In this document: one piece after another, positions 7,657-62,978 of the stretch
Layout: every line of letters starts with the position of its first letter
How positions within the stretch are numbered: the stretch's first letter is position 1
Source of the DNA: Thalassobaculaceae bacterium
GTDB lineage: Bacteria > Pseudomonadota > Alphaproteobacteria > Thalassobaculales > Thalassobaculaceae
Assembly: GCA_965228875.1 (NCBI GenBank)
Contig: OZ245843.1
Location: forward strand, 1,842,616 to 1,906,615
DNA length: 64,000 bases
Reading direction: 5' to 3'
Notes under the pieces: model-generated
Databases searched by the model: none
Seen by the model: only the letters and a program-made list of their open reading frames with translations
Told to the model about the DNA's origin: nothing
Made by a program: the position numbers and the translations under genes

Positions 7657-9296
7657 GCGCACTCGACCCGGTCCAGGTGGAGATCATCCGCAATGCCCTG
7701 GTGGCGGCGGCGGAGGAGATGGGCGTCACCATCTGGCGGACCAGCCGCTCGTCGGTGGTGCGCGACCTGCTCGACTACTCGACCTGCGTGTTCGACGCCG
7801 ATGGCGGCGCGGTCGGCCAGTCGACGGCGATCCCGATCCATCTCAATTCGATGCCCTCCTGTCTCAGCGAGATCCTCGCCAACCACATTCCGATCGAGGA
7901 GTGGGAGGACGGCGACGTCATCATCACCAACGACCCCTACGCCGGCGGTCAGCACCTTTCGGACATTCAGACCTTCAAGCCGGTGTTTCACGAGGGCCGC
8001 CGCATCGCCATCGCCGGGATCCTGGTCCACCACCTGGACGTCGGCGGCGGGGCGGCCGGCTCCTACGACCCGAGCGCCACGGAGATCCAGCAGGAGGGCT
8101 TCCGTATCCCGCCGCTGAAGATCGTCGAGCGCGGCAAGCGGAACGAGGCGGTGGTCAAGCTGCTGCTGCGCCAGACCCGCGAGCCGGCCAATGTCGGTGG
8201 CGATTTCGCCTCGCAGCTCGCGGCGCTGGAGACCGGGGCGGCGAACCTGACACGGATCGTCGGGCGCTACGGTCCGGACCTGCTGGCGGCCGCCATGGCC
8301 CGCATCCAGGACCAGTCGGAAGCGGCGATGCGCGCCATGATCCGCGACGTCCCGGACGGCACCTACAGCTTCGAGGACTTCGTCGACGACGACGGCATCG
8401 ACCGGGACCGGCCGATCCGCATCGCCGTCACGCTGACCGTCAGCGGCGAGACCATGGCCATCGACCTGGACGGCTCCAGCCCGCAGGCGCGGGGTCCCGT
8501 CAACTGCACCTACGCCATGGCGTATTCGGCGGCCATGTGCGGCGTGCTGATGTCGCTCGGCACCGAGATCCCGGCCAATGCCGGCTGCTACCGCCCGGCG
8601 ACGGTGACAGCGCCGCCCGGCAGCGTGGTGAACTGCCGCGCCCCGGCGCCGGTCGCCAACCGGATGGCGGTCGCCCACCGCGTGGTCAACGCGGTCATGG
8701 GCGCGTTCCATCAGGCGATGCCGGGGCTGGTGCCGGCGGCCTATTACGGCGTCAGTTACGCCACCTCGATGAACTGCATCCACGAGGACGGCAGCCGGCA
8801 GGTGTATTTCGACCTGGAATGCGGCGGCTGGGGCGGGCATCCGGACGAGGACGGGGCCAGCGGCTTCTCCTGCGGCCTGCACAACATCTCCAACGCCCCG
8901 ATCGAGATGCTGGAGAATTCCCTGCCGATCCAGTTCCAGGAATACGCCCTGGTGCCGGACAGTGGCGGGCGGGGGCGCAGCCGTGGCGGGCTCGGGCTCG
9001 CCCGCGCCTACCGCCTGGAGACGAAGAGCGGCGTCTTCGCCGCCAACCTCGACCGCTTCAAGGTCCGCCCCTACGGCCTCGCCGGCGGTGAGCCCGGCCA
9101 GCCCGGCACCCTGACGATCACCCGCGCGGCGACCGGCGCTGTCGAACAACTCCCGTCGAAGATCTCCGGCGTGCCGGCCGCGAAGGGCGATATCGTCCGC
9201 CTGCAGACCGCCGGCGGCGGCGGCTACGGCGACCCGGCCGAACGAACCGAGGCGGCGAAGGCGTATGATCGGGAGAACGGCTACACGAGCAGCTGA
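7653..9296 (+). CDS. Hydantoinase B / 5-oxoprolinase subunit B
   Basis: NDPYAGGQHLSD, HHLDVGG, DSGGRGRSRGG, TAGGGGYGDP; 4-bp ATGA overlap with subunit A. Confidence 0.93.
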   Translation: MSALDPVQVEIIRNALVAAAEEMGVTIWRTSRSSVVRDLLDYSTCVFDADGGAVGQSTAIPIHLNSMPSCLSEILANHIPIEEWEDGDVIITNDPYAGGQHLSDIQTFKPVFHEGRRIAIAGILVHHLDVGGGAAGSYDPSATEIQQEGFRIPPLKIVERGKRNEAVVKLLLRQTREPANVGGDFASQLAALETGAANLTRIVGRYGPDLLAAAMARIQDQSEAAMRAMIRDVPDGTYSFEDFVDDDGIDRDRPIRIAVTLTVSGETMAIDLDGSSPQARGPVNCTYAMAYSAAMCGVLMSLGTEIPANAGCYRPATVTAPPGSVVNCRAPAPVANRMAVAHRVVNAVMGAFHQAMPGLVPAAYYGVSYATSMNCIHEDGSRQVYFDLECGGWGGHPDEDGASGFSCGLHNISNAPIEMLENSLPIQFQEYALVPDSGGRGRSRGGLGLARAYRLETKSGVFAANLDRFKVRPYGLAGGEPGQPGTLTITRAATGAVEQLPSKISGVPAAKGDIVRLQTAGGGGYGDPAERTEAAKAYDRENGYTSS

Positions 9297-9373
9297 CACG
9301 AACGCGGCACCCCGTGCGTGTCGAAGGCCGCCAAGCGCCCGCCTGACCCGCCAAACTTTCGAGGCAACGCCCC

Positions 9374-10261
9374 ATGACCGAGATCCCCGACACCGACACC
9401 ATCGTCTACGTCAACGGCCGTCAGGTGCGGAAGTCGCAGGCGGTGATCTCGATCTACGACAGCGGGTTCTGTCACGGCGACGGCGCCTACGAGGGGATCC
9501 GTCTGTACGACGGCAAGGTGTTCCGGCTGGAAGCCCATATCCGCCGCCTGTACGAGGCCCTCACCCTGCTCGATATCGACCCCGGCATCGATCAGTCGGA
9601 CATGGCGAAGATCGTGCTCGACACCTTCCGCGCGAACGAGCTCGAGACCGACCTGCACATGCGCCTCCAGGTGACCCGGGGCATCAAGCGCATGACCGGA
9701 ATGAACCCGAAGCTGAACCTCGGGCCGGCCTCGATCGTCGCCTTCGTCGACCACAAGCCGCCGATCTTCGACAAGGCGGGAATCACGCTGATCACCTCGA
9801 CCCTGCGCCGGGCCTCGCCGAACGTGATCGACGCCAAGATCCACCACACCAACCAGCTCAATCAGATCCTGGCCAACATCGAGGCGAACCGCCAGGGCGC
9901 GGACGAGGCGATCATGCTCGACGACCGCGGGTTCGTCGCCGAGACCAACTCGACCACCATGTTCTGCGTGAAGGACGGCGTGCTGATGACGCCGCATCCG
10001 ACCTTCATCGTCGTCGGCATCACCCGCGGCATCCTGCTGGAGATGGCGCGGGAGGAAGGCTGGGGCCCGCGCGAGGCCGACCTCAGCGTCTACGACTTCG
10101 TCACCGCCGACGAGGCGTTCATCTGCGGCACCGTCGGCGAACTGGTGCCGATCAGGGCGATCGACGGGCGGCCGGTCGCCGGAGCCGTTCCCGGGCCGAT
10201 CACCGCGCGGCTGATGGAACGCTACAGGGCGTTGACCCGGACCGAAGGCACCGCGGTCTGA
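9374..10261 (+). CDS. Fold-type IV PLP aminotransferase-like protein
   Basis: DSGFCHGDGAYEGIR, VAETNSTT, GITRG, ADEAFICGT; His at the usual catalytic-Lys position. Confidence 0.88.
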   Translation: MTEIPDTDTIVYVNGRQVRKSQAVISIYDSGFCHGDGAYEGIRLYDGKVFRLEAHIRRLYEALTLLDIDPGIDQSDMAKIVLDTFRANELETDLHMRLQVTRGIKRMTGMNPKLNLGPASIVAFVDHKPPIFDKAGITLITSTLRRASPNVIDAKIHHTNQLNQILANIEANRQGADEAIMLDDRGFVAETNSTTMFCVKDGVLMTPHPTFIVVGITRGILLEMAREEGWGPREADLSVYDFVTADEAFICGTVGELVPIRAIDGRPVAGAVPGPITARLMERYRALTRTEGTAV

Positions 10262-10264
10262 CGG

Positions 10265-10579
10265 TCAGGCAAGGAACCTGCGCAGGACGCCGACCAGCTG
10301 AACCGCGCCCTCGACCAGCTGCTGGGTGGAGGCGGCCTGATCGATTTCGCCCTTGATGCGGCGCATGTCGGCGACATCCCGGTCGCTGGCGACGACGCCG
10401 GCGGCGACCAGCTTCTCGCGCGCGCCGCTCAGCGTGTTGACCGCGTCGTCGAGCTTCGGCTTGAGAGCGGTCATCGCGTCGAGATCGGCGTCGTCCAGCG
10501 CCTTCTTGTAGGCCTTGCTGAGCCTGAACACCGCGTCCTGAGCGTCCTCCAGCACCATCATGTCGTTGTCGGCCATCAT
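10265..10579 (-). CDS. Hypothetical helical protein
   Basis: 104-aa ORF with host-like codon bias and GGGAGAGG RBS. Confidence 0.7.
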   Translation of the reverse strand: MMADNDMMVLEDAQDAVFRLSKAYKKALDDADLDAMTALKPKLDDAVNTLSGAREKLVAAGVVASDRDVADMRRIKGEIDQAASTQQLVEGAVQLVGVLRRFLA

Positions 10580-10600
10580 CCTCTCCCGCGTCCAGCCGGT

Positions 10601-10714
10601 TAGAGCGCGATCGGTTCGGGTCGAAACGCTCTGAACCGTGAAGCGCCCTCTAACTCATTAATCAAAGGCCGAGTTCACACGATCAGCGTTTCCAGCCGAT
10701 CGTGATTTGCTCTG
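10601..10714 (-). repeat. ~115-bp double-hairpin intergenic repeat, copy 1 (CIR/RIME/BRU-RS-like)
   Basis: TAGAGCGCGATCGGTTC...CGATCGTGATTTGCTCTG; reverse-complement match to copies at 35958, 56239 and 62864. Confidence 0.88.
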
Positions 10715-10725
10715 GCCCCGTCCTT

Positions 10726-11637
10726 CTACGAAGCCGAGAGCGACGCCCCCGCCTCGTCCAGCGCCGCGTCGAACAGCGCCTTGAGCGCCGGCGTCGCGGT
10801 CAGCTCGGAGATCACACCGTCGGTGCGCGCCTGCAGGCCCGACAGATCCCGGCCGGTGATCATTCCGGCCGCCCTGAAGGCGACGGCCAGCCCCGCCATG
10901 AGGTCGTCGAGCGTCAGCGTGTCGTACGCCGCCAGCAGCTTGCGCAGCTCGAGGCCGAGCTTGGCCGTCTTCAGGCACTGGGAGACGGCGTCGGCGGTCA
11001 CCCGCTCCTCCCGGGCGACGATCGCCATCAACCGTTCGCGCAGTCGGAGAAGCTCCGTGCGCCGCTGCGCCACCGTCAGCGCCGTGTCGTCGCGGACGCT
11101 CTCGATATCGGCTGCCAGGAATCCACGCTCGACGACGAAACGGGCCGGATGCGCCTGCAGGCTCTTCGCCAGGGCCGCCATCTGCACCGTCAGCTTGTCC
11201 AGCGGCGCGATCGCCTGCTTCACCACCGGCGCGGCCAGAAGGCTGCCCTGTTCGAGCGATGCGAAGACCGCGGCGAACGTCGCGTACTGGCCGCGCAGCT
11301 TGACGAGCACCCCGTCCCAGTCCTTCGCGCTGCCGGCGCCGCCGAATGAGACCGGGTCCGCCAGAATGTCCAGCGTTGTGCGGGTGATCGGGTTCTTCGA
11401 CCCTTCGACCAGCTTCACGAAGGTGTCGGCGGCTTCGCTTGCGGACTGCGGCGGGGCGGCGACCTCCGCCTTGCGCAGCGCATCGATGCTGTCGATCGCC
11501 GCGTCGGCGGTCGCCTGGAACTGCACCGCTCCGACCTGCACGCTCCTGGCCTTCTCGGCGCAGCCGGCAAGCGCCAACGTCGCGCCGAGCACGAAGATCA
11601 GAGAGAAAGGCCGCAGCCCCGTGGTCATGGCCGCCAT
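10726..11637 (-). CDS. Hypothetical lipoprotein
   Basis: Hydrophobic N-terminus with LAGC lipobox; mostly helical body. Confidence 0.72.
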   Translation of the reverse strand: MAAMTTGLRPFSLIFVLGATLALAGCAEKARSVQVGAVQFQATADAAIDSIDALRKAEVAAPPQSASEAADTFVKLVEGSKNPITRTTLDILADPVSFGGAGSAKDWDGVLVKLRGQYATFAAVFASLEQGSLLAAPVVKQAIAPLDKLTVQMAALAKSLQAHPARFVVERGFLAADIESVRDDTALTVAQRRTELLRLRERLMAIVAREERVTADAVSQCLKTAKLGLELRKLLAAYDTLTLDDLMAGLAVAFRAAGMITGRDLSGLQARTDGVISELTATPALKALFDAALDEAGASLSAS

Positions 11638-32198: not shown

Positions 32199-33485
32199 TC
32201 AAGCGTCGAGCGACAGTTCCTCGCCGGTCTCAAGCGCCAGCAGTTCCTCGATCGTCTGCCGCCGCCGGGCCAGCCGCAGCGCCCCGCCATCGACGACGAC
32301 CTCCGGGATCAGCGGACGGGAGTTGTAGTTCGACGACATCGCCGACCCGTAGGCTCCGGCGTCGGAGATGACGCAGAAGTCGCCGACGCGCGGCAGCGGA
32401 AGCGCGCGAAACTCGACCACGCCCCCCTCGCCCTGGGTGAAGACGTCGCCCGACTCGCAGAGCGGCCCCGCAACCGCGACCGGCCGTCCCTCCCCCGTGA
32501 CGGGCGCGCCGTCGGCGTCGACGAACCCGATCCGGTGAAAGCTGCCGTACATCGCGGGTCGGGCCAAGTCGTTGAACCCGGCATCGACCACGACGAAATA
32601 GCGCTCCGCCACGCGCTTTACCGCCCGGACCTCGGCGACCAGGCAGCCGGCGGCCGCGACCAGGAAACGGCCCGGCTCGATCTCCATCTCCACAGGCGTG
32701 GTCTGATGCTGCTGGATGGCGTTGCGCGCGGCGTCCCAGTTCGCGATGTAGTGCTGGGTGTCGACCTCCGCCGCGCCATCGCTGTACGGAACCGACAGGC
32801 CGCCGCCCGCCGACACCGCGCGGATCGGCAGGCCCAGCGCGCGATAGGCCTCGATCATGGCGTCGCCCACCCGCTCGAGATGACTGTAGTCGACGCCCGA
32901 TCCGATATGCATGTGCAGGCCGACCAGGTCGAGGCCAGCCGCCTTGATCCGCGGGCCGAGCGCGGCCAGTTCCTCGTGCCAGATCCCGTGCTTGGAGAAC
33001 GGACCGCCGGTGTTCGTCTTGTTGCTGTGGCCGTGACCGAACCCGGGGTTGATCCGCAGCCAGATCCGGTGGCCCGGGCTGACCGCCGCGATCTGATCGA
33101 TCATGTCCGGCGAGCCGCAGTTGACCGGGGTCCCGAGTTCGACGACCCGTCGCAGGGTCGGACGGTCGAAAATGTCGGCCGTGAACACGATCTCGTCGCC
33201 ACCGGCGGTGTAGCCGGCCGCCAGTGCGCGCTCGATCTCGCCGAGCGAGACGGCGTCCACCTTCACGCCGTTGCGGCGCATGACCCGCAGCAGGTCAAGG
33301 TTGCTGTTCGCCTTCTGGGCATAGCGGATGGTGTCGAAACCCCGCAGGCGCTCGATCTGACCTTCGATCCTTGCGGCGTCGTAAAGCCAGAACGGCGTGC
33401 CGACACGGGCCGCGAGGACGGCGATCAGCGCTCCCTGCGACGGCTCCTGCCGCTGCCGGTTCTCGAGTTCGCTCTCCATCGCCAT
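32199..33485 (-). CDS. lysA: Diaminopimelate decarboxylase
   Basis: YAQKANSN, HMHIGSG, EPGRFLV, GPLCESGD, GAYGSAMSSNYNSRP; start approximate. Confidence 0.93.
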   Translation of the reverse strand: MAMESELENRQRQEPSQGALIAVLAARVGTPFWLYDAARIEGQIERLRGFDTIRYAQKANSNLDLLRVMRRNGVKVDAVSLGEIERALAAGYTAGGDEIVFTADIFDRPTLRRVVELGTPVNCGSPDMIDQIAAVSPGHRIWLRINPGFGHGHSNKTNTGGPFSKHGIWHEELAALGPRIKAAGLDLVGLHMHIGSGVDYSHLERVGDAMIEAYRALGLPIRAVSAGGGLSVPYSDGAAEVDTQHYIANWDAARNAIQQHQTTPVEMEIEPGRFLVAAAGCLVAEVRAVKRVAERYFVVVDAGFNDLARPAMYGSFHRIGFVDADGAPVTGEGRPVAVAGPLCESGDVFTQGEGGVVEFRALPLPRVGDFCVISDAGAYGSAMSSNYNSRPLIPEVVVDGGALRLARRRQTIEELLALETGEELSLDA

Positions 33486-33559
33486 GCCATCCCCCGGAAA
33501 CGCCGCCACCGCCCAGGAAGCGGCGGTGGCGTGTCACATGCCGGGAAACCAACGCGATT

Positions 33560-34882
33560 TCAAGCCCGCCGGGTCTTGCCTCCGTTGCGTGCGACTTCGG
33601 TGTCTGGCCGAGCCGGTGACATTCCCTCACCCGAGACCTGGCGCAAAGTGGTCGATCCGCGCCCCCGCCACCGCCGCTCGAAATCGGCGATGTAGTCGCG
33701 GGTCTGCGGCACCGCATAGAGGTCCTTGGCCAGCTGGATCTGGAACACCATCAGGCAGCCGCGCCGGAACGCCACCTCACAGCCGACCAGGTAGAACTCC
33801 CACATCCGGAAGAACCGCTCGTCGTACATCTGAACGATCCTCTGCCGCTCCGCCTCGCAGTTCCGACGCCAGAGACGGAGCGTGTCGGCATAGTGCTGAC
33901 GCAGGATCTCCACGTCGGTGGTGTACATCGGCGTGCGCTCGATCGACGTGAACTGCTGGCGCAAGGACGGCGTGTAAGCCCCTGGAAATATGTACTTCTC
34001 CATCCACTGGTTCTGCGGCTCGGGGTTGTTGAACACCCCGATCGCATGAACCACCGCGACGCCATTGTCGCTCAACAGCCGGTTAACCTGTCCGTAGAAT
34101 TCGTCGTAGTGCCTCGGCCCGACATGCTCGAGCATCCCGACCGAGACGATCCGGTCGTAGCGGTCCTCGACCCGGCGATAGTCCTTGAGGTGGAAGCGCA
34201 CCCGGTCCGCCAGGCCGGCCTCCTCGGCGCGGCGGTTGGAGACCGCATGCTGCTCGCGGGACAGGGTCACGCCGTCGACCTGCAGATCGTCCACGATGGT
34301 CGCCAGAAACAGGCCGAGACCGCCCCACCCGGACCCGATGTCGAGCAGGCGCTGGCCCGGTTTCAGGTTCAGCTTGGCGGCGAGGTGCAGTTTCTTGTTC
34401 CACTGCGCCGTTTCCAGGTCGTCGTCGGGATCGAGGAAATAGCCGCAGCTGTACTGGCGATCGTGATCGAGGAAGAGGTCGAAAAGCGCGTCGCTCAGAT
34501 CGTAGTGGTGGGCGACCTTGCGCTGGGCCAGGTGGACCGGGTTCCAGTGCCGGAACGCCGCCCTCACCCCGCGCAATGCCGTCAGGAACCGCCGCAGCGC
34601 CCCGGATCGGGCGCCGGAAATGTTGGCCATGCAGAGGTCGAGGAGATCGTAGAGGGACGTACCGTCCTCGAGACTCAGGCTGCCGTCCATATAACCTTCG
34701 CCGATCGCCAACTCCGGGTTGAACATGATCCGCCGGTCGAGGGATGGGCTGCCGATCCGGATCGTCGCCCGGGGCCCGTCGGCGCCTCGACAATCATAAC
34801 GATTTCCGTCAGGGCCGATCAGTGTCAGGTGTCCGACGGAAATCAGTTGGCGAAACGCGTGCACGCAAAGCATCGTTGTCAC
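33560..34882 (-). CDS. cfa: Cyclopropane-fatty-acyl-phospholipid synthase family methyltransferase
   Basis: HHYDLS, YSCGYF, LDIGSGWG, VSVGMLEHVG, YIFPG, RMWEFYL. Confidence 0.9.
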   Translation of the reverse strand: MTTMLCVHAFRQLISVGHLTLIGPDGNRYDCRGADGPRATIRIGSPSLDRRIMFNPELAIGEGYMDGSLSLEDGTSLYDLLDLCMANISGARSGALRRFLTALRGVRAAFRHWNPVHLAQRKVAHHYDLSDALFDLFLDHDRQYSCGYFLDPDDDLETAQWNKKLHLAAKLNLKPGQRLLDIGSGWGGLGLFLATIVDDLQVDGVTLSREQHAVSNRRAEEAGLADRVRFHLKDYRRVEDRYDRIVSVGMLEHVGPRHYDEFYGQVNRLLSDNGVAVVHAIGVFNNPEPQNQWMEKYIFPGAYTPSLRQQFTSIERTPMYTTDVEILRQHYADTLRLWRRNCEAERQRIVQMYDERFFRMWEFYLVGCEVAFRRGCLMVFQIQLAKDLYAVPQTRDYIADFERRWRGRGSTTLRQVSGEGMSPARPDTEVARNGGKTRRA

Positions 34883-34970
34883 CCCCTGGTCTCTTGGGGT
34901 CCGATCGCGGGTGTGCGATCACCCTTAACCAATTTAAGGATATAATATCCTGGACAGTGGAGGGAAGCGC

Positions 34971-35960
34971 ATGAACACGCGTCGTTTCGGCCGAACCGGC
35001 CTGCAGATCTCGGAGCTCGTCTTCGGAGGCGGTTGGGTCGGGGGCATCCTGATTCACCAGGATGACGATATAAAACGGACGGCGATCCGCCGGGCACTGG
35101 ACGGCGGCATAAACTGGATCGACACCGCCGGCGACTACGGTCAGGGACAATCGGAGGTCGCGCTGGGCTGGCTACTGGCGGAGCTCGAGCCCGCCGAGCG
35201 ACCGCATGTGTCGACCAAGGTCCGTCTCGACCTCGAGAGCGGCGAAAGTCACGAGAGCCAGATCCGCCGCGGCATCGAGACCAGCCTCGAACGGCTGCGG
35301 ATGAACAAGGTCACCCTGTTCCAGCTGCACAACCCCGTCGAGCCGGAGCGCACCGGCCAGCACGTCGGCGTGCAGGACGTCATCGCCGACGGGGGCATTG
35401 CCGACATTCTGGACGGGCTGCGCCGCGAGGGACTCACCGACCACGTCGGCTTCACCGCCCTTGGCGACGCCGCGTCCTGTATCGAGGTCGTCGAGAGCGG
35501 CAAGGTCGACAGCGCGCAGGTCTACTACAACATGCTCAACCCGACGGCCGGCCTGAGCGAGCCCGTCGACGGGCTGGCCGCTCAGGACTTCACCGGCCTG
35601 ATGGCGGCCTGCCGGCAGAACGACGTCGCCATCATGAATATAAGGGTATTTGCCGCCGGGGTGCTGGCGACCGATGTCCGCCATGGTCGCGAGGTGGCGA
35701 TCACGCCGGAGTCGGCGGATCTGGACAGCGAGGCCAGGCGGGCCCGCGCGGCGATGGAGGTTGCGGGCAGCCCCGGCGAGGCCAGGGCCGAGACCGCCAT
35801 CCGCTTCTCACTCGCCAACCGGGAGCTGTCCTGCGTGGTGATCGGGCTGGCGGAGCTGGAACACCTGGACCTCGCGTTGAGGGCGGCGGAAAACGGTCCG
35901 CTCTCGGCGGCGACGCTCGCAGACCTGCGCGAGCTCTGGGCCCGTAACTTCGACCTTTAG
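34971..35960 (+). CDS. Aldo/keto reductase
   Basis: RFGRTGLQIS, GINWIDTAGDYG, STK, SLERL, QLH. Confidence 0.9.
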   Translation: MNTRRFGRTGLQISELVFGGGWVGGILIHQDDDIKRTAIRRALDGGINWIDTAGDYGQGQSEVALGWLLAELEPAERPHVSTKVRLDLESGESHESQIRRGIETSLERLRMNKVTLFQLHNPVEPERTGQHVGVQDVIADGGIADILDGLRREGLTDHVGFTALGDAASCIEVVESGKVDSAQVYYNMLNPTAGLSEPVDGLAAQDFTGLMAACRQNDVAIMNIRVFAAGVLATDVRHGREVAITPESADLDSEARRARAAMEVAGSPGEARAETAIRFSLANRELSCVVIGLAELEHLDLALRAAENGPLSAATLADLRELWARNFDL

Positions 35961-36072
35961 AGTGAATCACGATCAGATGTTTCCATCTGATCGTGTGAAT
36001 TTGCTCGTTCTTTAATGGCTTAGAGGGCGATTCACGCTTCGGATCGTTTCGATCTGAAGCGATCGCGCTCTA
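35958..36072 (+). repeat. ~115-bp double-hairpin intergenic repeat, copy 2
   Basis: TAGAGTGAATCACGATCAGATG...GATCGCGCTCTA; its first TAG is the stop codon of the aldo/keto reductase. Confidence 0.92.
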
Positions 36073-36086
36073 GCGCCAGCCGCCTC

Positions 36087-37433
36087 TCAGCGCACCGGCG
36101 ATCTCGGGTCGGTCTCGGAGGGCCCCGAGGCCGGCGCGGCGGGCTGGCGCGTGTCGCCTCCCGATGCGGCTGGTCCTGACGCCGTGGTTCCTAACGCCGT
36201 GGGTCCTGGCGCCGGCGTCGCCGCGTCCGCTGGCGGGAACAGGGTCGGGATGTCGGCCGCCGCCTCGGCTTTGCGCTCGGCATCCTCGCCGCCCAGCATC
36301 CTCCGGGCCCCCACGACGATGCGGTTGTAGGCCTTCTCCGAGAGCAGCCCGGAGGCGATGGCGAGGAACGACAGGACGTAGGGGTTGAGATCGTCGATCT
36401 TGTTGTCGGCGGTGCTGCCGCCGGTGAGCGTGAGCTGGCCGGCCCGGAAGAAGATGTAGATGATGATCGCCGCCGCCATCCCCTCCAGCGGACGGGCGAC
36501 GAACCAGGTCACCGTGATCGCCCCGTCGCGCCGTTCCCCGTCTCGGAACAGTTCGCGGCTCATGTGGATCGTGCTGCCGAGAAGGCCCATGGAGACGGTG
36601 AGCGCGAAGGTGAGAAACTCGCTCGGCAGCTGCACCAGGTAGATCAGCACCGAGACGTTGGTGTTCAGCACCTGGCTGACATTCGCCTGAACGTTCGCCT
36701 TGATCTCGTATTCCTTGAAGACCTCGTCGCGGATCGAGTCGCTCTGCTTGCGAAGGCGGTCGAGTTCCTGGGTCTCCAGCCTGAACAGGACCGACAGGTC
36801 GTTGTAGCGATGGGCCGCGCGCTTGATCTCCGTGGCTGCCGCCAGCGCGTTCGCCGACGCCGGGACGAGACGATCTCGGATGTTCTGGAGCGCGTCGCGG
36901 TCGTCGTCGTCTTCGGATGTCCGAATCAACTCGTCGATGACGATCTCGATATGAACCGCGTAACTGCGCCAGTCCCATTCCGCCGGATCACGATCGTTGG
37001 ACGGCCCCACCGACCGACCGACCTTGACGTCCAGTTCGGCCGCCGCTTCGACCACGTCGCCGAACAGGTCGCTCAGTCGGTTCTCCGCCTGCTGCCGCGT
37101 CGCCTCGAGCGCGCGAAGCGTCTGCTTCATGTCGAGGACCGTCCGACGGGTGACGTCGAGCTGATCCACAACATAGGCTTCGCGTTCCGGAATGATGCGA
37201 AGGACCTTGAGCACGTCGCCGGCCTGGTCGGCGCTGTCCTGGATCGTGGTCGACTGGAAGACGGTCGCGCTCAGGATGATGAAGGCGGATCCGAGGCTGA
37301 TGACGTAGAGCAGAACCAGCCAGGAGAGACCGGTGATGCCGATACCCGCCTCGCGGGCGAACTCCACCGTCGCCTTCAGCCCGTCGCCACCGCGCTCGCG
37401 CCCATCGCCGTCTTTCGCACCATCGTTGGACAT
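36087..37433 (-). CDS. Hypothetical membrane protein: N-terminal TM, long coiled-coil, C-terminal 3-TM module
   Basis: MGLLGS...ARPLEG...IFFRAG...NPYVLSFLAIASGLLSE; Pro/Ala-rich tail. Confidence 0.78.
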   Translation of the reverse strand: MSNDGAKDGDGRERGGDGLKATVEFAREAGIGITGLSWLVLLYVISLGSAFIILSATVFQSTTIQDSADQAGDVLKVLRIIPEREAYVVDQLDVTRRTVLDMKQTLRALEATRQQAENRLSDLFGDVVEAAAELDVKVGRSVGPSNDRDPAEWDWRSYAVHIEIVIDELIRTSEDDDDRDALQNIRDRLVPASANALAAATEIKRAAHRYNDLSVLFRLETQELDRLRKQSDSIRDEVFKEYEIKANVQANVSQVLNTNVSVLIYLVQLPSEFLTFALTVSMGLLGSTIHMSRELFRDGERRDGAITVTWFVARPLEGMAAAIIIYIFFRAGQLTLTGGSTADNKIDDLNPYVLSFLAIASGLLSEKAYNRIVVGARRMLGGEDAERKAEAAADIPTLFPPADAATPAPGPTALGTTASGPAASGGDTRQPAAPASGPSETDPRSPVR

Positions 37434-37512
37434 CGCACCCCTGCCCGACAAAGCAGGACCGCATAGTCGATCGCGAATCCCTCGAAGACAAGGATCGCGC
37501 GCACCGATCGGG

Positions 37513-37528
37513 TGTGAGCTAGGTCACA
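37513..37528. promoter_or_regulatory. CRP/FNR-family box TGTGA-N6-TCACA
   Basis: gTGTGAgctaggTCACAc, about 80 bp upstream of the 37433 start. Confidence 0.45.
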
Positions 37529-37555
37529 CTCCGGCCTCCGGCATGGGGTCTCCGG

Positions 37556-37657
37556 TCAGTCTCCTTGCGACTTGAGGGTGAACTCGCCCTCGCGAATCCG
37601 ATGCGGCCACTCCGATACCATCTCGGCGACGGTCTCTTCGCCATAGATGTCGATCAT
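37556..37657 (-). pseudogene. Displaced original 3' end of the target gene (MIDIYGEETVAEMVSEWPHRIREGEFTLKSQGD*)
   Basis: Manual translation, 33 codons plus TGA; 23 of 32 aligned residues identical to the C-terminus of 39287..39538. Confidence 0.92.
37644..37657 (+). repeat. att core, left copy TAGATGTCGATCAT
   Basis: Identical to 39372-39385; sequences diverge completely to the right of it. Confidence 0.9.
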
Positions 37658-37784
37658 CTACGCCCGGCCCGCCAGCGCCGTCCATTCGGGAATCATGAAC
37701 CGGCTTGTCGGGCCATCTGCCCATGGTAAACCAAGCCAGCCGTTACGCTTTACGTCACACTGCAGCATTTGGCAGGAGGCTTGT

Positions 37785-38090
37785 ATGTCCGCCGGACCCC
37801 CGCGAACCACCGAGCACCAGAAGCGTCTCCGGAAGCAATTCGGAATGTGGATCAAACGCCTCCGGGAGGCGTCGGAGTTAACGCAGAAGGATGTGTCGGA
37901 AGCCCTCGGGCATGGATACTTAACGACTCTTTCGCAGTACGAAAGAGGAATTCGACCGGTTCCTATGAACTACTGGCCTATTCTGGCAAATATCTACCAC
38001 ATGAAGCCGAAAGAGTTCGCCATGCGAGCCCTAAAACTTTCGGAACCTGATGTGTTCTACATGATTTGGGGTTCAGATCAGGAAGATTGA
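37785..38090 (+). CDS. XRE-family helix-turn-helix protein
   Basis: IKRLREASELTQKDVSEALG...LSQYERG; AGGAGG RBS at 37774; AT-richer codons. Confidence 0.9.
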   Translation: MSAGPPRTTEHQKRLRKQFGMWIKRLREASELTQKDVSEALGHGYLTTLSQYERGIRPVPMNYWPILANIYHMKPKEFAMRALKLSEPDVFYMIWGSDQED

Positions 38091-38092
38091 GC

Positions 38093-39256
38093 ATGACGGT
38101 GATGAAACGATCCGGATCGAAGTACTGGATGTACGAATTCAGGTTCGACGGGGAGCGGTATCGCGGGTCGACCAAACAGACCAACAAGAAGGCTGCCCAG
38201 GATGTCGAGCGGAAGGTGCTCGAAGACCTCAAGGCGCGAAAGCGTGGTGGGTTCGAGACGAGCATCATCCTGGGGGAGGCCGTCGATGCCTACGGTGAGC
38301 GGTACGCCCGGCGCACCCGGAGCGGGCGCCAGATCCAGGTCCAGGTGGCCGCCCGGGTGAAGCACCTGGGGGCCGACCGTGTGTTCGACGACCTGGACAC
38401 CGACGACGTGATCGGGATGTTCGACCGGATGGTCGAGAACGGCTACAGCAAGTACACCGCTGGGCTCTACACGGCCCGGCTCGGCGCGGTGATCAACTGG
38501 TTCGCCGAGAGCAAGCCGAAGGTCGCCCGTTCGACCAACATCGCGTTCCCCAAGGCCAAGCGTCCCCGCCGGGAGCGGGATCTGACGCTGGACGAGGAGC
38601 AGGCGATCCTGGACCAGCTGGACCCGGACCTGCCGATCCACGAGCACACCAAGCTCCGCTACCTGATCGACACCCAGGATGTCGCCGTCATGCTGGCCGA
38701 CACCGGGGCGCGGATCAGCGAGGCGGTCTCGGCGACCTGGGACATGGTCCTTTGGGACCGGGACATGCTGAGGCTCTACCGGATCAATACGGACAGCTGG
38801 TCGAACATCCCTCTGTCGCCGCGCATGGCTGACATGCTGCGCCGCCGGGAGGAACTGACCGAGGGCTCGCCCTATATCTTCCCGAACCAGTCGACGAACC
38901 CGCGATCGACCAGTCCCCACAAGTCGACCGAGATGCACGCCCTGGAGCGCGCCATCGACTGCGCCGGGGTGAACGCCCAGCACCTTGTGGACCGCTACGG
39001 GAAGGTCACGCTGCACACCTACCGGCACACCTTCATCACCCGACGGGCCGAGAAGGGGATCGCACCCTGGACCCTCCAGGAGGTCGCCGGTCATGCCCAC
39101 CTGTCGACAGCCCTGGGCTACGTCCAGAACCGCCGGATCGCCTCGGCGTCCGTCAAGGCGGCGCTGGCGGGGTCCCCACAGCTGGTTTCGGAGAGAGAAG
39201 CCTCCCCCTACTTGTCCCCTCGCTACAGCGGTCGCACTAAGCGCGCTCTGTCTTGA
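38093..39256 (+). CDS. Phage-type tyrosine recombinase / integrase
   Basis: N-terminal arm-binding-like YWMYEFRFDGERYRGST; DTGARISE (R), HTYRHT (HxxR), AGH and LGY (catalytic Y). Confidence 0.93.
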   Translation: MTVMKRSGSKYWMYEFRFDGERYRGSTKQTNKKAAQDVERKVLEDLKARKRGGFETSIILGEAVDAYGERYARRTRSGRQIQVQVAARVKHLGADRVFDDLDTDDVIGMFDRMVENGYSKYTAGLYTARLGAVINWFAESKPKVARSTNIAFPKAKRPRRERDLTLDEEQAILDQLDPDLPIHEHTKLRYLIDTQDVAVMLADTGARISEAVSATWDMVLWDRDMLRLYRINTDSWSNIPLSPRMADMLRRREELTEGSPYIFPNQSTNPRSTSPHKSTEMHALERAIDCAGVNAQHLVDRYGKVTLHTYRHTFITRRAEKGIAPWTLQEVAGHAHLSTALGYVQNRRIASASVKAALAGSPQLVSEREASPYLSPRYSGRTKRALS

Positions 39257-39286
39257 AGGGACGCTCTGGGGGCGCCTTGGTCGGAG

Positions 39287-39538
39287 CTAAGTATCTGACT
39301 TCAAAGTGAACTCTCCGGCACGGATACGGTCGGGCCACTCGGCCACCATATCCGCCACCATCGTAGCCCCGTAGATGTCGATCATGTCGGTCAGCGCCGC
39401 GAATATCGCCGAGGAGGCGACGATCTCCGACGACGCGCCCTGCGCCACCGCGTCGTCCCAGGCTTCCAGCATCACCTTGAGCGCAAGTCGCTTCTGCTCG
39501 TCCTCGGGCAGGATCGGCGGTTGTTGCTCGTCGCTCAT
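39287..39538 (-). CDS. Small conserved alphaproteobacterial hypothetical protein (83 aa); integration target, chimeric C-terminus
   Basis: MSDEQQPP...KRLALKVMLEAWDDA...MIDIYG...RIRAGEFTL; GGAGG RBS; last 99 bp lie within the element boundaries. Confidence 0.87.
   Translation of the reverse strand: MSDEQQPPILPEDEQKRLALKVMLEAWDDAVAQGASSEIVASSAIFAALTDMIDIYGATMVADMVAEWPDRIRAGEFTLKSDT
39372..39385 (+). repeat. att core, right copy TAGATGTCGATCAT
   Basis: Identical to 37644-37657; encodes MIDI(Y) on the minus strand. Confidence 0.9.
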
Positions 39539-39673
39539 GCTTGCCTCCACAGGGGCCGGACTCGGTACCCGGCGAGCCTTAGCGCGCCGCGGCCGCGCTG
39601 TCACCCGGAACGTGGCCGGGAGCCGTGCCGAGGACCATGGCGGAGCCGGAGCGCCCATGGCAGTGTCGGCGGC

Positions 39674-41641
39674 ATGCACGATCCGTCCCGCGACCCCCGG
39701 CTCGAGTTCCGAGACGGCGCGCCGGTCTCCACCCGGTTCGACGATGTCTACTTCTCCCGCGCGGGCGGGCTGGCGGAGTCCGCGCACGTCTTTCTCGACG
39801 GCTGCGACCTTCCCGACGGCTGGGACCGCCCGGGCGGCCTGCCGTTCACGATCGGGGAGACCGGGTTCGGCACGGGACTGAACTTCCTTGCCGCCTGGGA
39901 GGTGTGGCGCGCGCGCCGACCGGCCGGCGGAGTCCTGCATTACGTGGCGGTGGAGGGGTACCCGATCCCCCGCCCGCTGATGCGCGAGGCGCTGTCGGCG
40001 TTTCCGCGGCTCGCGCCTCTCGCCGCCCGGCTTGTCGAGCGCTATCCGGACACGCCTAGCGGCCTGCATCGGATCTGGTTCGAGCCCGATCGCGTGTGCC
40101 TGACCCTGTCCATCGGCGAAGCGGCCGCAGCCCTGGCCGCCGTCGAAGCGCGGGTCGATGCCTGGTTTCTCGACGGTTTCGCTCCCGCCAGGAACCCGGA
40201 TATGTGGCGCGGGGAGGTCCTGCGCGAGGTTGCCCGGCTGTCCGTTACGGGGACCCGGATCGCAAGCTTCACCGCCGCCGGCAGCGTGCGCCGGGGCCTC
40301 GCCGCCGTCGGCTTCGAGATCTGGAAACGTCCCGGCTTCGGACACAAGCGGGATTGCATCGCCGGCCGCTTCGCCGGGGCGTCCGGGGCGAATACGACCG
40401 TCAGTGCTGGCCAGCCCCCGTGGTTCGCCGCGCCACCGCCGGTCGCCGCCCGTCATGTCGCGGTGGTCGGAGGCGGCGTTGGGGGTGCGGCCACGGTCCG
40501 CGCGCTCGGCCGACGTGGCGTGGCGGTCACCTGGCTCGACCGGCATGGCCGCGCGGCGGCGGAGGCGTCGGGCAACCCCGTCGGCCTCATGATGGCCCGG
40601 CCCGTCCTCGATGCTGGAGGATCGGGATCGGTCAGTCCGGCCGCCTTCCGCCACGCCGTCGAGGAGGCCGCCGGGCTCGGTGTGGCGTTCGGCGGCGACG
40701 GTGTCCTGGAACTGGCGCCGGATCCGGCCTCCGAGGCCCGGTTCGCCGCCCTGGAGGAGGCCGGGCTGCTCTCACCGGTCGGCGCCGTAACCGTGGACGC
40801 CGAAACCGCCGCATCCATCGCCGGTGTCCGGCTCGGACGGCCGGGGCTGTGGCACCGTTCGGGCGGGTGGGTGAATCCCGGAGACTGGACCGCGGCCCTG
40901 GCCGGCGCCGTCCGTCCGATGCGGGCAGTGGTGGGGCGCATCGCCGCCGACGGCAGCGGCTGGACCCTGCTCGACGCCTGCGGCGGTGTCCTGGTGACAG
41001 CGGACGCGGTGGTCGTGGCGTCGGCGATGACCGCCCCGAGACTTCTGGACCGCGCGTTCCTTCCGCTGCAGGCCGTGCGCGGACAGCTCACGCGCCTTGC
41101 CACCACCGCCGCCAGCCGCCGCATCCGGGCCTGTCTCGCCTTCGGGGGATATCTGTCGCCGGCGATCTCGGGCAGCCACGTCGCCGGCGCGACCTACGGT
41201 TTCGACGACACGGCGGCGGGAGTCTGGCCGGTTCCCGTCCGGTCCGAGGACCATGCGCGCGTTCTGAACGGGTTCCCGGACGCGGTCTCGACGCTGTTCG
41301 GAACGGCCCCGTCGCTTCTCGGCGGACGGGCCGCCGTGCGGGCCGTGACACCCGACCGCCAGCCGGCCGCCGGTCCGCTCTGCGACGCCGCCGCCCTCGC
41401 GATGGACTTCGCCCACCTGCGCAAGGACGCCCGTGACGAGTCCGGCTCCTCGCCACCGTACAGTCCCGGCCTCTTCGCGCTCACCGGCCTCGGGTCGCGC
41501 GGGCTGGTGACGGCCCCGCTGATGGCGGAACTCGCCGTATCGCAGATGCTCGGCGAGCCATGGCCCGTCGCCCGATCCGTGGCGGCGGCGGTCCATCCGA
41601 ACCGGTTCGCGATCCGCGCGCTCAAGCGACGCCGGCTGTAG
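39674..41641 (+). CDS. mnmC: Bifunctional tRNA mnm5s2U34 biosynthesis protein MnmC
   Basis: FDDVYFS, ETGFGTGLNF, WFLDGFAPARNPDMW, GFGHKR; FAD domain GGGVGG, ASGN, GLGSRG. Confidence 0.93.
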   Translation: MHDPSRDPRLEFRDGAPVSTRFDDVYFSRAGGLAESAHVFLDGCDLPDGWDRPGGLPFTIGETGFGTGLNFLAAWEVWRARRPAGGVLHYVAVEGYPIPRPLMREALSAFPRLAPLAARLVERYPDTPSGLHRIWFEPDRVCLTLSIGEAAAALAAVEARVDAWFLDGFAPARNPDMWRGEVLREVARLSVTGTRIASFTAAGSVRRGLAAVGFEIWKRPGFGHKRDCIAGRFAGASGANTTVSAGQPPWFAAPPPVAARHVAVVGGGVGGAATVRALGRRGVAVTWLDRHGRAAAEASGNPVGLMMARPVLDAGGSGSVSPAAFRHAVEEAAGLGVAFGGDGVLELAPDPASEARFAALEEAGLLSPVGAVTVDAETAASIAGVRLGRPGLWHRSGGWVNPGDWTAALAGAVRPMRAVVGRIAADGSGWTLLDACGGVLVTADAVVVASAMTAPRLLDRAFLPLQAVRGQLTRLATTAASRRIRACLAFGGYLSPAISGSHVAGATYGFDDTAAGVWPVPVRSEDHARVLNGFPDAVSTLFGTAPSLLGGRAAVRAVTPDRQPAAGPLCDAAALAMDFAHLRKDARDESGSSPPYSPGLFALTGLGSRGLVTAPLMAELAVSQMLGEPWPVARSVAAAVHPNRFAIRALKRRRL

Positions 41642-41786
41642 CTGCCAGGCACGGTCTGGTTCTCGGAATGTAGAAGGATCGCCCCCTCGGCCTTTCGAGC
41701 GCGGCATCCCGGTGCGATGGTAGGGTCCTGTTTGCACCGCCGGGCGCGTCCCGCCCGGTTTCCGCCCGCACACTTCGGAGGATCGC

Positions 41787-42176
41787 TTGGACCCCTATAC
41801 CATCCAGCAACAGGTGACGTTCATCTACACCCGCGATCTGGCGGCGGGGTCGTCCTTCCTGCGCGATAAGCTCGCCCTGGACCTCGTCCTGAACCAGAAC
41901 GACCTCTGCCACATCTACCGTGTCGCGCCCAACGCATTCCTCGGTGTGTGCACCAACAGGCCGGCGCCGGCGGATCCCGGCGTGACCTACAGCTTCGTCG
42001 TTTCCGATGCCGACGCGGCCTACAGGACGCTGAGGGCACGGGGAGTCGAGTTCGAGGGACCGCCGGAGCTGAGCGAACGCTTCAACGTCTACTCGGCGTT
42101 CTTCCGCGGGATCGAGACCTATCGGTTCGAGATCCAGGAATTCCGCGATCCGAGCTGGCCTTCGCCGGTCGGCTGA
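41787..42176 (+). CDS. VOC/glyoxalase family protein
   Basis: Beta-alpha-beta pattern, RGVEF, YSAFFRG..YRFEIQ; TTG start after GGAGG. Confidence 0.8.
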   Translation: MDPYTIQQQVTFIYTRDLAAGSSFLRDKLALDLVLNQNDLCHIYRVAPNAFLGVCTNRPAPADPGVTYSFVVSDADAAYRTLRARGVEFEGPPELSERFNVYSAFFRGIETYRFEIQEFRDPSWPSPVG

Positions 42177-42186
42177 GCGCGAGAGG

Positions 42187-42690
42187 TCAGGCCGCGAGCG
42201 CCTCATCGGGCCGCGGCCGCGGGTCGGGCCGGGGAAGAACCGCCACCAGCAGCCCGACGATCCGGTCGCCCGACGCGTCGCGGAACGGCAGGACGAGGCG
42301 GTCGAACGTCGCGATCCAACCACCCTCGACGAGATGCATCTCGCTATGGTGCGGGCTCCCGCCGGTGAGTGCCGTTCGGCAGGCGCTCTCGGCGATCCCA
42401 CGCAGACCGCGTGGCATCTCGTCGAGGTACTGACCTTCTGGGCTCTCACCGAAGAGTTTCGCCAGAGTCCGTCCGACCTGTTGCCACCGCATACGGCCGG
42501 TCTCCGCCTCGACGTCGACCCAGGCCAGGTCGCCGGCTGCAGGGGGCCCGACGTCAGAGTCGGCGGCTGACGACTCCACGAGGGGATCGACAGCCGGCGT
42601 TCTCCGGCGAACACCATCGTCCTGCCAGGCCGACAGCAGATCTTTGAGGTCGTGTCCCATCGGGGCGGGAGCGTTGCGCGTCATGGCCAT
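42187..42690 (-). CDS. Stand-alone PAS-domain protein (PAS_5-like, divergent)
   Basis: QVGRTL...FGESPEGQYLDE, FDRLVLPF. Confidence 0.65.
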   Translation of the reverse strand: MAMTRNAPAPMGHDLKDLLSAWQDDGVRRRTPAVDPLVESSAADSDVGPPAAGDLAWVDVEAETGRMRWQQVGRTLAKLFGESPEGQYLDEMPRGLRGIAESACRTALTGGSPHHSEMHLVEGGWIATFDRLVLPFRDASGDRIVGLLVAVLPRPDPRPRPDEALAA

Positions 42691-42787
42691 GTCGTCTCTG
42701 GTGTCTTCGTCCTCGACACACTGCCACGGGAGTTCCTAATCTTAAGTTGACGCGACGTTCCCGCCAGTTCTCGAGGATACCCAAGAC

Positions 42788-44185
42788 ATGACCAGCACCG
42801 ACCTCGCCCTGCTTCCGGCGACGGAACTCCTGCACGGGTACGCCCGAAAGACGATTTCCCCGGTGGAAGCGACCCGGGCGGCGCTGGACCGCATCGACGC
42901 CCTGAACGGCAAGCTCAATGCCTATCGACTGGTGGATCACGACGCCGCGCTGTCGAGCGCGAAGGCATCGGAGGCGCGCTGGGCGAAGGGGGAGCCGCTC
43001 GGCCTGGTCGACGGCGTGCCGACGTCGATCAAGGACCTCTCGCTGACCGAGGGATGGTCGACGATGCGTGGCTCCAAGGCGGTCGACCCGGACGGCCCCT
43101 GGGACGTGGACGCGCCTTTCGTCGCCCGTCTGCGCGAGCATGGGGCGGTTCTGCTCGGCAAGACGACGACACCCGAGTTCGGATGGAAGGGCGTGACGGA
43201 CTGTCCGCTCACCGGCATCACCCGCAACCCCTGGGACCCGTCCAAGACCCCCGGGGGAAGTTCCGGCGGTGCGGCCGTCGCGGCGGCGACCGGCATGGGA
43301 GCACTGCACCAGGGATCCGACGGCGGCGGCTCGATCCGCATGCCGGCGGGATACACCGGGATCTACGGGATCAAGCCCACCTTCGGGCGCGTCCCGGCCT
43401 TCCCGCTCTCGCCCTTCGGCACCGTCTCCCATATCGGACCGATGACCCGGACGGTCGCCGACTCGGCCCTGATGCTGACGGTCATGAGCGAGCCTGACGC
43501 CCGCGACTGGTACGCTCTTCCCTACGACGCCGCCGATTACCGCAATGCCCTGCGGCCCTCGGTCGCCGGCTGGCGGATCGCCTACAGCCCCGACCTCGGC
43601 CACGCGACGGTTCAACCCGAAGTCGCGGCCCTGGTCGAAGCGGCCGTCGCCGTGTTCCGCGAGCTGGGCGCCATCGTCGAGGTGGTCGACAGCCCGATTG
43701 CTGACAGCCACGACACGTTCACCGCCCACTGGTTCACCGGGGCCGCCAACCTGTTCACCGGATTCTCGGAAGAGCAGAAGGCGGTCATCGACCCCGGTCT
43801 CGTCGAGGCGGCGGAGGCCGGCGCGCGCTATTCGTTGCTGGACTATCTCGCCGCGGTCAAGGCGCGCGAGGCGATGGGGACGGCGATGAACGAGTTCCAC
43901 GAGACCTACGATCTGCTGCTCACGCCGACCCTGCCTCAGCCCGCCTTCGAGGCGGGTCACGAGGTGCCGCCGGGCTCGAACATGCGGCGCTGGACCGAGT
44001 GGACGCCCTTCTCCTACCCGTTCAACCTCACCCAGCAGCCCGCCGCCTCGATCCCGTGCGGCCTGACCGCCGCCGGCCTTCCCGTGGGGCTGCAGATCGT
44101 CGGTCCCAAGGGCGGAGACGATATGGTCCTGAACGCGTCCGCCGCGTTTGAGAGCGTGATGCCGATCGCCCTGCCGGACGTTTGA
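42788..44185 (+). CDS. Amidase (amidase-signature family)
   Basis: GVPTSIKD, GKTTTPEFG, PGGSSGG, GSDGGGSIRMPA. Confidence 0.94.
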   Translation: MTSTDLALLPATELLHGYARKTISPVEATRAALDRIDALNGKLNAYRLVDHDAALSSAKASEARWAKGEPLGLVDGVPTSIKDLSLTEGWSTMRGSKAVDPDGPWDVDAPFVARLREHGAVLLGKTTTPEFGWKGVTDCPLTGITRNPWDPSKTPGGSSGGAAVAAATGMGALHQGSDGGGSIRMPAGYTGIYGIKPTFGRVPAFPLSPFGTVSHIGPMTRTVADSALMLTVMSEPDARDWYALPYDAADYRNALRPSVAGWRIAYSPDLGHATVQPEVAALVEAAVAVFRELGAIVEVVDSPIADSHDTFTAHWFTGAANLFTGFSEEQKAVIDPGLVEAAEAGARYSLLDYLAAVKAREAMGTAMNEFHETYDLLLTPTLPQPAFEAGHEVPPGSNMRRWTEWTPFSYPFNLTQQPAASIPCGLTAAGLPVGLQIVGPKGGDDMVLNASAAFESVMPIALPDV

Positions 44186-55695: not shown

Positions 55696-56241
55696 TTGAA
55701 CGTCAGGTACCAGACGCATTCCGCGGGCTCGTTCGTCGGGACCGCACACAGTCCGACGGACGCGCCGCACCCTCGGCTGGCCGCCGCCTATGGCGCCTGG
55801 CTGAACGCCCCGAAGGTCGCAGGTCTCCCTCCGCGCCGGGAGATCGCTCTCGAGCAGGTTCCGGACGCCGTCGGTCAGATCGGGATCGTCGACGTGCTTC
55901 CAGACGACGGGTTTCGCTATCGCCTGTTCGGATCCGGACTGGTCGCCGCCATCGGCTACGACGCGACGGGCTGGACCACGGACCAACTCAGGCCGCCCGA
56001 ATATGCGAACGTGATCACCGCCCAGTACCGGCAGGTCGTCGAGGAGCGGCACCCCATTCTGCATGAGATCCGCACGAAGACGCCCAAAGAGAACGAGCGT
56101 CGGTACTTCCGCCTCACCGCGCCACTCACGTTGAGCGATGGCAGGGTCGACCAGCTCTGGCTGACGGTCGCCATGCTTGGCAGCTTCGGCAACGACGTGT
56201 TCGACCCGGACGACTCGCCCATCCTTCCGAGTTGGGACTAG
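55696..56241 (+). CDS. Stand-alone PAS-domain protein (PAS_5-like)
   Basis: LPPRREI, FRYRLFGS, GYDATG, YFRLTAPL; TTG start after GGAG (uncertain). Confidence 0.78.
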   Translation: MNVRYQTHSAGSFVGTAHSPTDAPHPRLAAAYGAWLNAPKVAGLPPRREIALEQVPDAVGQIGIVDVLPDDGFRYRLFGSGLVAAIGYDATGWTTDQLRPPEYANVITAQYRQVVEERHPILHEIRTKTPKENERRYFRLTAPLTLSDGRVDQLWLTVAMLGSFGNDVFDPDDSPILPSWD

Positions 56242-56353
56242 AGCAAATCACGATCAGATGGAAACATCGGCTCGTGTGAATTTGCGCTATCTTTAATGGG
56301 ATAGAGGGCGATTCACGGTTCAGATCGATTCGATCTGAACCGATCGCGCTCTA
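56239..56353 (+). repeat. ~115-bp double-hairpin intergenic repeat, copy 4
   Basis: TAGAGCAAATCACGATCAGATGGAAACATC...CGGTTCAGATCGATTCGATCTGAACCGATCGCGCTCTA; first TAG is the PAS gene stop. Confidence 0.92.
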
Positions 56354-62863: not shown

Positions 62864-62978
62864 TAGAATAGATCACGATCGGATGGAAACATCCGATCGT
62901 GTGAATTTGCTCTGTCTGTAATGACTTAGAGAGCGGTTCACGGATCGGATCAATCTGATCTCAGTCGTTCGCGCTCCC
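62864..62978 (+). repeat. ~115-bp double-hairpin intergenic repeat, copy 5 (right arm degenerate)
   Basis: TAGAATAGATCACGATCGGATGGAAACATCCGATCGTGTGAATTTGCTC...TTAGAGAGCGGTTCACGG...CGCGCTCC. Confidence 0.87.

Follow-up and report, generated by a model that had tools for sequence, protein, structure and literature searches.

A probable 1,728-nt integrative element with a surrogate end for its target gene in a Thalassobaculaceae bacterium

Phage 21, which inserts at icd, follows the same replacement strategy as e14. At icd of Escherichia coli, e14 leaves a 163-bp pseudo-icd, which is the classical protein-gene case (PMC6379469). The rule stated for integrases that target the interior of a gene (PMC10111431) is that attP carries a replacement for the part of the tRNA or protein gene lying past the crossover. 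SGI1 targets the 3' end of trmE. Here we describe a locus of a Thalassobaculaceae bacterium that resembles these systems, located in a 64,000-nt stretch of contig OZ245843.1 (assembly GCA_965228875.1, positions 1,842,616-1,906,615), which is hereafter called the window and on which all coordinates are based. In this locus, a small gene for an 83-aa protein is interrupted by an insert that is best read, with a probability of about 0.88, as a 1,728-nt site-specific integrative element repairing its target with a surrogate gene end carried in attP.

The insert is bounded by an exact 14-nt direct repeat, the core (TAGATGTCGATCAT on the + strand), at 37644-37657 (left copy, attL crossover region) and 39372-39385 (right copy, attR crossover region). 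These are the only two copies in the window even when one mismatch is permitted, and two matches occurred in 0 of 100 shuffles. The core copies share one reading frame, and joining the DNA there gives a frame of 84 aa. Counted with one core copy, the repeat-bounded insert comprises 1,728 nt, and the unique, element-specific DNA between the cores 1,714 nt (37658-39371, + strand). Only two open reading frames (ORFs) lie between the cores, both on the + strand: an XRE-type helix-turn-helix (HTH) gene (37785-38090, 101 aa), followed by a tyrosine integrase gene (38093-39256, 387 aa), with 127 nt 5' of the XRE gene, 2 nt from its stop to the integrase start, and 30 nt after the integrase. The integrase gene and the small gene are convergent with their stops 30 nt apart, and the integrase gene ends ~115 nt from the core. 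The current small gene (39287-39538, - strand) is a chimeric open frame of 83 aa, made of the host 5' part (39386-39538), the core, and an element-borne surrogate 3' end of 85 nt (39287-39371, - strand; codons 57-83 plus stop, past the core). A second, orphan gene end stands on the far side of the insert (37556-37657, - strand; 33 codons plus stop, left core included). Upstream of the orphan core, no residual similarity to the small gene was found, and the frame reads ...ALAGRA and a stop directly before MIDIYG.

The current end reads MIDIYGATMVADMVAEWPDRIRAGEFTLKSDT (39287-39385, - strand) and the orphan reads MIDIYGEETVAEMVSEWPHRIREGEFTLKSQGD, each followed by a stop codon. The two are identical at 23 of 32 aligned residues, and of the 17 conserved degenerate codons past the core, 13 differ: codon 5 (TAC/TAT) and 12 of the 16 that follow from codon 6. 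These peptides, coordinates, and counts had been given in a preliminary description of the locus, and all of them were correct on re-reading. At the nucleotide level, identity is perfect over the 14-nt core and then 49 of 76. Within the family, 28 of 36 other genomes contain an orthologue of the small gene; of 24 genomes drawn from other families of the class, two do. All eight same-genus orthologues end in an orphan-like manner (...MIDIYGEETVAEMVAEWP[DH]RIR[ED][GS]EFTLK..), matching the orphan at 25-28 of 30 positions and the current end at 23-24 of 30. The closest database homologues also bear an EET...QG-type end, and the ATM...SDT end was found in none of 74 database homologues. The insert is missing in all eight same-genus loci from the stretch between the aldo-keto reductase gene/small gene and mnmC; in seven of these loci, the aldo-keto reductase gene (34971-35960 in the window) directly adjoins the small gene. 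The 14-nt core is kept in 10 of 28 loci compared (eight of genus g1 and two of g3). On the evidence of the same-genus orthologues and the database homologues, the orphan is the original host end and the current end arrived with the element. The preliminary description had made the same assignment, regarding the insert as an integrase element, and had predicted beforehand that orthologues would be closer to the EET... version; both are borne out by these comparisons.

In a six-frame search of the same genome, the orphan was recovered as a match to the small protein (E 3.4e-10). Apart from G000, a second, orphan-like match was found in none of the 61 genomes searched. A second match in G014 was considered as a second gene end and rejected, as it proved to be a contig break with a 21-nt overlap, i.e., an assembly break.

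The empty site was found in a natural strain. Logan contigs of four public runs were placed on 34500-42500; such contigs show presence and cannot show rare excision products. No RNA data set appeared among the sequencing runs listed. Record 20 of X6, a seawater metagenome, is a contig of 1,662 nt at depth 17.6 in which 37643 is directly followed by 39372; exactly the 1,728 nt of the insert are skipped, and at the joint 14 letters fit either side. With 33 differences in 1,662 nt, this record represents the empty attB of a ~98% identical strain, and it confirms from a natural source the earlier proposal that joining at the core restores the frame. X6 also has a 1,178-nt element contig (depth 4.5) that shows no difference from the window. 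The element contig of X2 (1,798 nt, 37628-39425, no differences) has a depth of 12.6, against 37.5-45.5 for the flanks. Record 29 of X8 (2,999 nt) spans 36702-39703 including both junctions, with the element in place, and its 85 differences and 3 gaps relative to the window correspond to a ~97% identical strain. At least two diverged strain backgrounds carry the element, and others equally close lack it. The orphan is undecayed, as had been claimed: a single synonymous change in 107 nt separates it from the intact allele carried by the empty-site strain.

Homologous gene ends 1.7 kb apart in the same orientation could also be produced by a local duplication or gene conversion of the host gene in which the integrase is not involved. 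We regard this as having next to no chance of being correct, since the similarity ends exactly at the core on the upstream side, synonymous sites are saturated between the two ends while the flanks are 98-99% identical between strains, an integrase module occupies the DNA between the copies, and the empty-site contig joins the flanks exactly.

In the proposed mechanism, integrase-mediated recombination at the 14-nt core would have inserted an element consisting of the XRE gene, the integrase gene, and the attP site. The attP would bring a homologous replacement for the last 27 codons past the core, so that the interrupted gene would stay open and family-like, and the host's own end would be left as the orphan on the far side. 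The XRE-integrase pair may act as a self-regulated operon that catalyzes integration and possibly excision. Of this reading, the anatomy of the insert, the identity of the host end, the exact empty site of a close strain, and the polymorphic presence of the element among close strains are established.

All sequence-level features of the e14/icd-type class are found here, namely a recombinase gene by the att site, an identity block, an uninterrupted attB, and an open-frame replacement, and the mechanism would be the ordinary target-repair strategy of integrative elements. The e14/icd system (PMC6379469) likewise has a tyrosine-integrase element in the 3' part of a gene, a substitute end, a pseudo-fragment on the far side, and restoration of the gene by excision. 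However, e14 and phage 21 are multi-gene prophages, whereas the element in the window has two genes in 1.7 kb; its identity block is only 14 nt long, its substitute end is strongly diverged (49 of 76 nt past the core), and its target encodes an uncharacterised 83-aa protein instead of a central enzyme. The islands that target tRNA or tmRNA genes and gene ends (TIGER/Islander) are similar in that the attP replacement keeps the target functional and the integrase gene lies by the att site (PMC10111431), but they carry cargo and mobilisation functions and the element in the window carries neither. Tycheposons (10.1101/2020.12.28.424599) and PICMIs (PMC10803314) are also small, integrase-bearing marine elements that are transient among close strains. 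Unlike the element in the window, they have modules for replication, packaging, or cargo, and their targets are mostly tRNA genes. As to sequence kinship with tycheposons or PICMIs, for which integrase searches only were made, no close viral relative was found.

Other classes of mobile DNA were compared in the same way. No structural, packaging, replication, or lysis gene of a prophage or phage satellite was found in the 1,728 nt, which hold two ORFs. Neither a relaxase nor a type IV secretion ORF, as expected of an integrative and conjugative element (ICE) or an integrative and mobilizable element (IME), is present between the cores, where there is no room for one; no oriT search was made, and a hitcher by oriT only is conceivable. 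No transposase domain or terminal inverted repeats of an insertion sequence (IS) or transposon were seen, and in relatives free of the element the direct repeat already forms part of the conserved target gene. The window contains no tRNA or tmRNA gene, and within 33000-43000 no Rfam family matched at E <= 0.1. Short repeats near the cores fall within coding repeats (MVAxMVAE) and were not accepted as arm-type sites. A promoter and terminator scan gave no sigma-70-like site, and the two weak terminator-like sites that it returned are both downstream of the orphan. In the open-access literature we found no account of a two-gene XRE-integrase element, which does not establish absence.

The preliminary description also regarded the current end as recoded. 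Over codons 5-30, the current and orphan ends differ with a proportion of synonymous differences (pS) of 0.94 and a proportion of nonsynonymous differences (pN) of 0.17. For the same 26 codons, the median pS of orthologue pairs is 0.64, with 11% of 406 pairs at or above 0.94, and the orphan differs from same-genus orthologues at a pS of 0.46-0.81. The silent divergence is that of any diverged family member, because synonymous sites are saturated between ordinary orthologues too, and the notion of recoding is not upheld. The best match of the surrogate end reaches 57 of 76 nt to any sampled orthologue and 26 of 30 residues to any homologue (P0016). At positions 1-28, each of its residues occurs somewhere among the 60 distinct family ends tabulated, and the Ala after YG, as in the surrogate end, occurs in three of the 60. 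We read the surrogate end as a genuine, old, and somewhat less constrained family fragment that would be carried in attP, with no sign of deliberate recoding.

The integrase matches Pfam PF00589 at 6.6e-16 and the phrog_1 integrase family at 1.7e-42 over residues 5-345. Residues R207, H308, R311, H334, and Y343, which we take to be the catalytic residues of the tyrosine integrase family, are invariant in a four-member integrase alignment. The XRE protein matches Pfam HTH_31 (1.7e-07) and HTH_3 (2.6e-06), as well as PHROG transcriptional regulator/repressor families, and may serve as a repressor and/or directionality factor. The two genes probably form one operon because the XRE stop lies 2 nt before the integrase start. 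The GC content of the element DNA is 0.63 vs 0.68 for the window; the XRE gene, at 0.52 (GC3 0.61), lies far below the abutting integrase gene at 0.66 (GC3 0.89) and below host genes, and this contrast between the two genes suggests a mosaic origin of the module.

Relatives of the integrase are few. The gene is single-copy in its own genome, and no relative at E <= 1e-40 was found in 62 other genomes of the family. Among 5.8 billion proteins, relatives were P0001 (96%), P0002 (51%), and P0003 (46%), all from Logan assemblies, the rest being generic at <=30%. A profile search of 1.84 billion representatives gave 172 integrases at E <= 1e-30, which places the integrase in a modest clade of phage-type integrases. 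Genome, viral, and metagenome contigs were also scanned, as were phage and plasmid records, and no close relative was found; the weak matches comprised five loci at 25-29% in viral contigs, one locus at 28% in metagenome contigs, one irrelevant locus in genome contigs, one phage record at 24%, and a best plasmid match at 28.5%. The XRE protein has a single relative, P0080, which is 99% identical. P0001 (387 aa) and P0080 are both full-length, and the longest contig for both is 13,057 nt.

When the whole order (63 genomes) was searched with a profile of the integrase and P0001-P0003, one other genome, G013, gave three identical matches. This genome, of the same family and another genus, carries a 2,906-nt unit in two 100% identical copies (L051, 9728-12633; L052, 7933-10838). 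In the unit, a homologue of the XRE gene (32%, E 2e-19) is followed by a homologue of the integrase (30%, E 4e-34), the gene order being that of the window. At a third locus (L050, 9975-11443), a partial copy of 1.47 kb adjoins a terminase-like ORF. The copies sit at dissimilar places, the one in L052 between a response-regulator gene and an ABC-transporter gene; no surrogate gene end was seen at the L052 copy, and no clear direct repeats were seen at the unit ends. The G013 unit and the element in the window are both very small and share a homologous XRE and integrase pair in the same order, but the G013 unit differs in being multi-copy, in having an integrase without the first ~46 residues of the window integrase, and in containing 1.36 kb of extra DNA. 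Because the homologous pair stands in the same order there, the XRE-integrase pair is a conserved module, found elsewhere too on a unit that is very small and has multiplied recently. In a sample of 401 genomes of the class, integrase-profile matches were found only in G222. At L044 of that genome (G222:C31), integrase-family ORFs stand in tandem at 8363-9391 and 10097-11446, with profile E values of 3e-35 and 2e-31.

Several observations weigh against the reading of the insert as an integrative element that repairs its target. No circular-form (attP) joint was found among the contigs of the four runs, in which rare forms are not visible, and empty and occupied sites were seen in different single-nucleotide polymorphism (SNP) backgrounds, not in one clone. 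The pN to same-genus ends is 0.13-0.17 for the surrogate end and 0.03-0.08 for the orphan, which is about threefold, and the surrogate end is therefore less constrained than the host end. The integrase in the window differs from P0001 at 16 positions, of which 11 are derived in the window copy, two in P0001, and three ambiguous. Seven of the 11 derived substitutions (V163D, K232N, R290C, L318R, D324A, T340A, and G368R) are at sites invariant in P0001-P0003, and by our own arithmetic the 11:2 ratio has a one-sided binomial p of ~0.01. This excess suggests that the window integrase is under relaxed constraint, and the copy may therefore be losing activity despite its intact frame. Finally, the gene content does not account for movement of the element between cells, as genes for replication, transfer, and packaging are all missing from the 1,728 nt.

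As a rival explanation, the 1.7-kb unit could be a grounded remnant, now immobile, of a larger prophage, island, or ICE from which internal deletion spared only the integrase module and both att sites. The unit has no mobility functions beyond the integrase, it is single-copy in the genome, and the 11 derived integrase substitutions, against two in P0001, include L318R and T340A, both at sites that do not vary among the other three integrases; moreover, integrative elements of fewer than five genes are reported to be rare, with 12 IMEs or 0.5% in one preprint (10.64898/2026.01.13.699239). However, the unit is compact and free of pseudogene debris, a same-sized unit is present in a ~97% identical strain with only 3 gaps over 2,999 nt, the relatives P0001 and P0080 are full-length, and the only relative in the order, that of G013, is also small (2.9 kb) and multi-copy. 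We therefore hold a remnant to be unlikely, if still a serious candidate, and the two-gene form is probably, by a modest preference, the natural state of the element and not a wreck.

The crossover core lies in codons 52-56 of the gene for the target protein (83/84 aa), which is divergent to mnmC and adjoins it in 22 of 29 loci by nucleotide matching. An AlphaFold2 model built with 44 homologues predicts four helices (residues 12-32, 37-56, 58-65, and 68-73) at a mean pLDDT of 88.7. In this model, the crossover at M52 lies inside helix 2 (37-56), and the exchanged part would comprise helices 3-4 and the tail. The exchanges in the current end are E58A, E59T, T60M, E63D, S66A, H70D, and E74A, plus the tail. 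The 83-aa protein matched no Pfam, NCBIfam, PHROG, or PADLOC family, Foldseek against the Protein Data Bank (PDB) gave no structural neighbour at E <= 0.001, and the ESM Atlas gave only unnamed "hypothetical protein" clusters. A pentatricopeptide repeat protein from a PDB-sequence profile search was rejected as a relative, the match being short (30 residues, E 1.2e-06), as was the result of a wide VIA-align search, in which the best Z of 5.5 is within noise for helical proteins.

The preliminary description went on to propose a C-terminal switch, in which regulated excision and re-integration of the element would toggle the small protein between two functionally different C-termini. Both states do occur in natural populations, the orphan is undecayed, and the exchange removes three conserved-type glutamates (E58A, E59T, and E74A) from helices 3-4 of a confident model. 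However, no single clone showed both states, which came from different strain backgrounds, a surrogate end is the general habit of gene-interior-targeting integrases (PMC10111431), all residues at surrogate positions 1-28 are found in normal orthologues, no second end was found in the other genomes of the 61 searched, and the constraint on the integrase is relaxed rather than maintained. Nor is the gene inactivated in the occupied state, as in regulated gene integrity or active lysogeny, for the target stays open and family-like. A programmed switch is accordingly given very little credence. The related statement that integration toggles about 40% of the protein holds insofar as 32 of 83 residues are exchanged, but it is overstated, as only seven of the first 30 residues and a tail of two to three residues differ. 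Under the integrative-element reading, the C-terminal exchange is probably a neutral-to-mildly-deleterious by-product of integration and not a regulatory device.

With regard to the wider meaning of the locus, no new mechanism is revealed, and the apparent gene duplication is explained as an ordinary integration scar. We consider the element mildly interesting for its extreme smallness, its rare integrase/XRE pair, its presence/absence polymorphism in close marine strains, and its distant multi-copy relative. The locus adds a new attB within the conserved small gene by mnmC; its 14-nt core is present in at least two genera and is paired with a compact integrase/regulator module. If active, the module would give a poorly tractable group of marine alphaproteobacteria a natural cassette for site-specific integration that is very small, and it would illustrate how far an integrative element can shrink. 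As a tentative extension, which we hold to be rather improbable at present, the XRE-integrase pair might define a family of "nano" integrative elements of 1.7-2.9 kb, self-contained and site-specific but free of cargo, replication, or transfer genes, which would persist by repairing or avoiding the entered gene and spread among close marine strains by host routes such as transformation, vesicles, or gene-transfer agents. If that were true, they would be the smallest autonomous tyrosine-recombinase integrative elements, and the C-terminal exchange would amount to a natural experiment in which ~40% of a conserved small protein is swapped.

A second variable segment (35961-37555) lies directly beside the orphan end. 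It holds an ORF of 454 aa (36087-37451, - strand) with hydrophobic stretches recognized by eye and no Pfam, PHROG, NCBIfam, or PADLOC match. The ORF is missing from seven of the eight same-genus loci; G001, where the integrase element is absent, has it at ~70% nucleotide identity. In addition, a dispersed, partly palindromic repeat of ~115 nt occurs in the window at 35957-36075, 56239-56353, and 62864-62976 on the + strand and at 10601-10713 on the - strand. The copy at 35957-36075 had no Rfam match in the search of 33000-43000. The repeat has 74 matches in the genome, its depth is 10-15 times that of neighbouring bins in all four runs, and it looks like a repetitive extragenic palindromic (REP) element or a miniature inverted-repeat transposable element (MITE).

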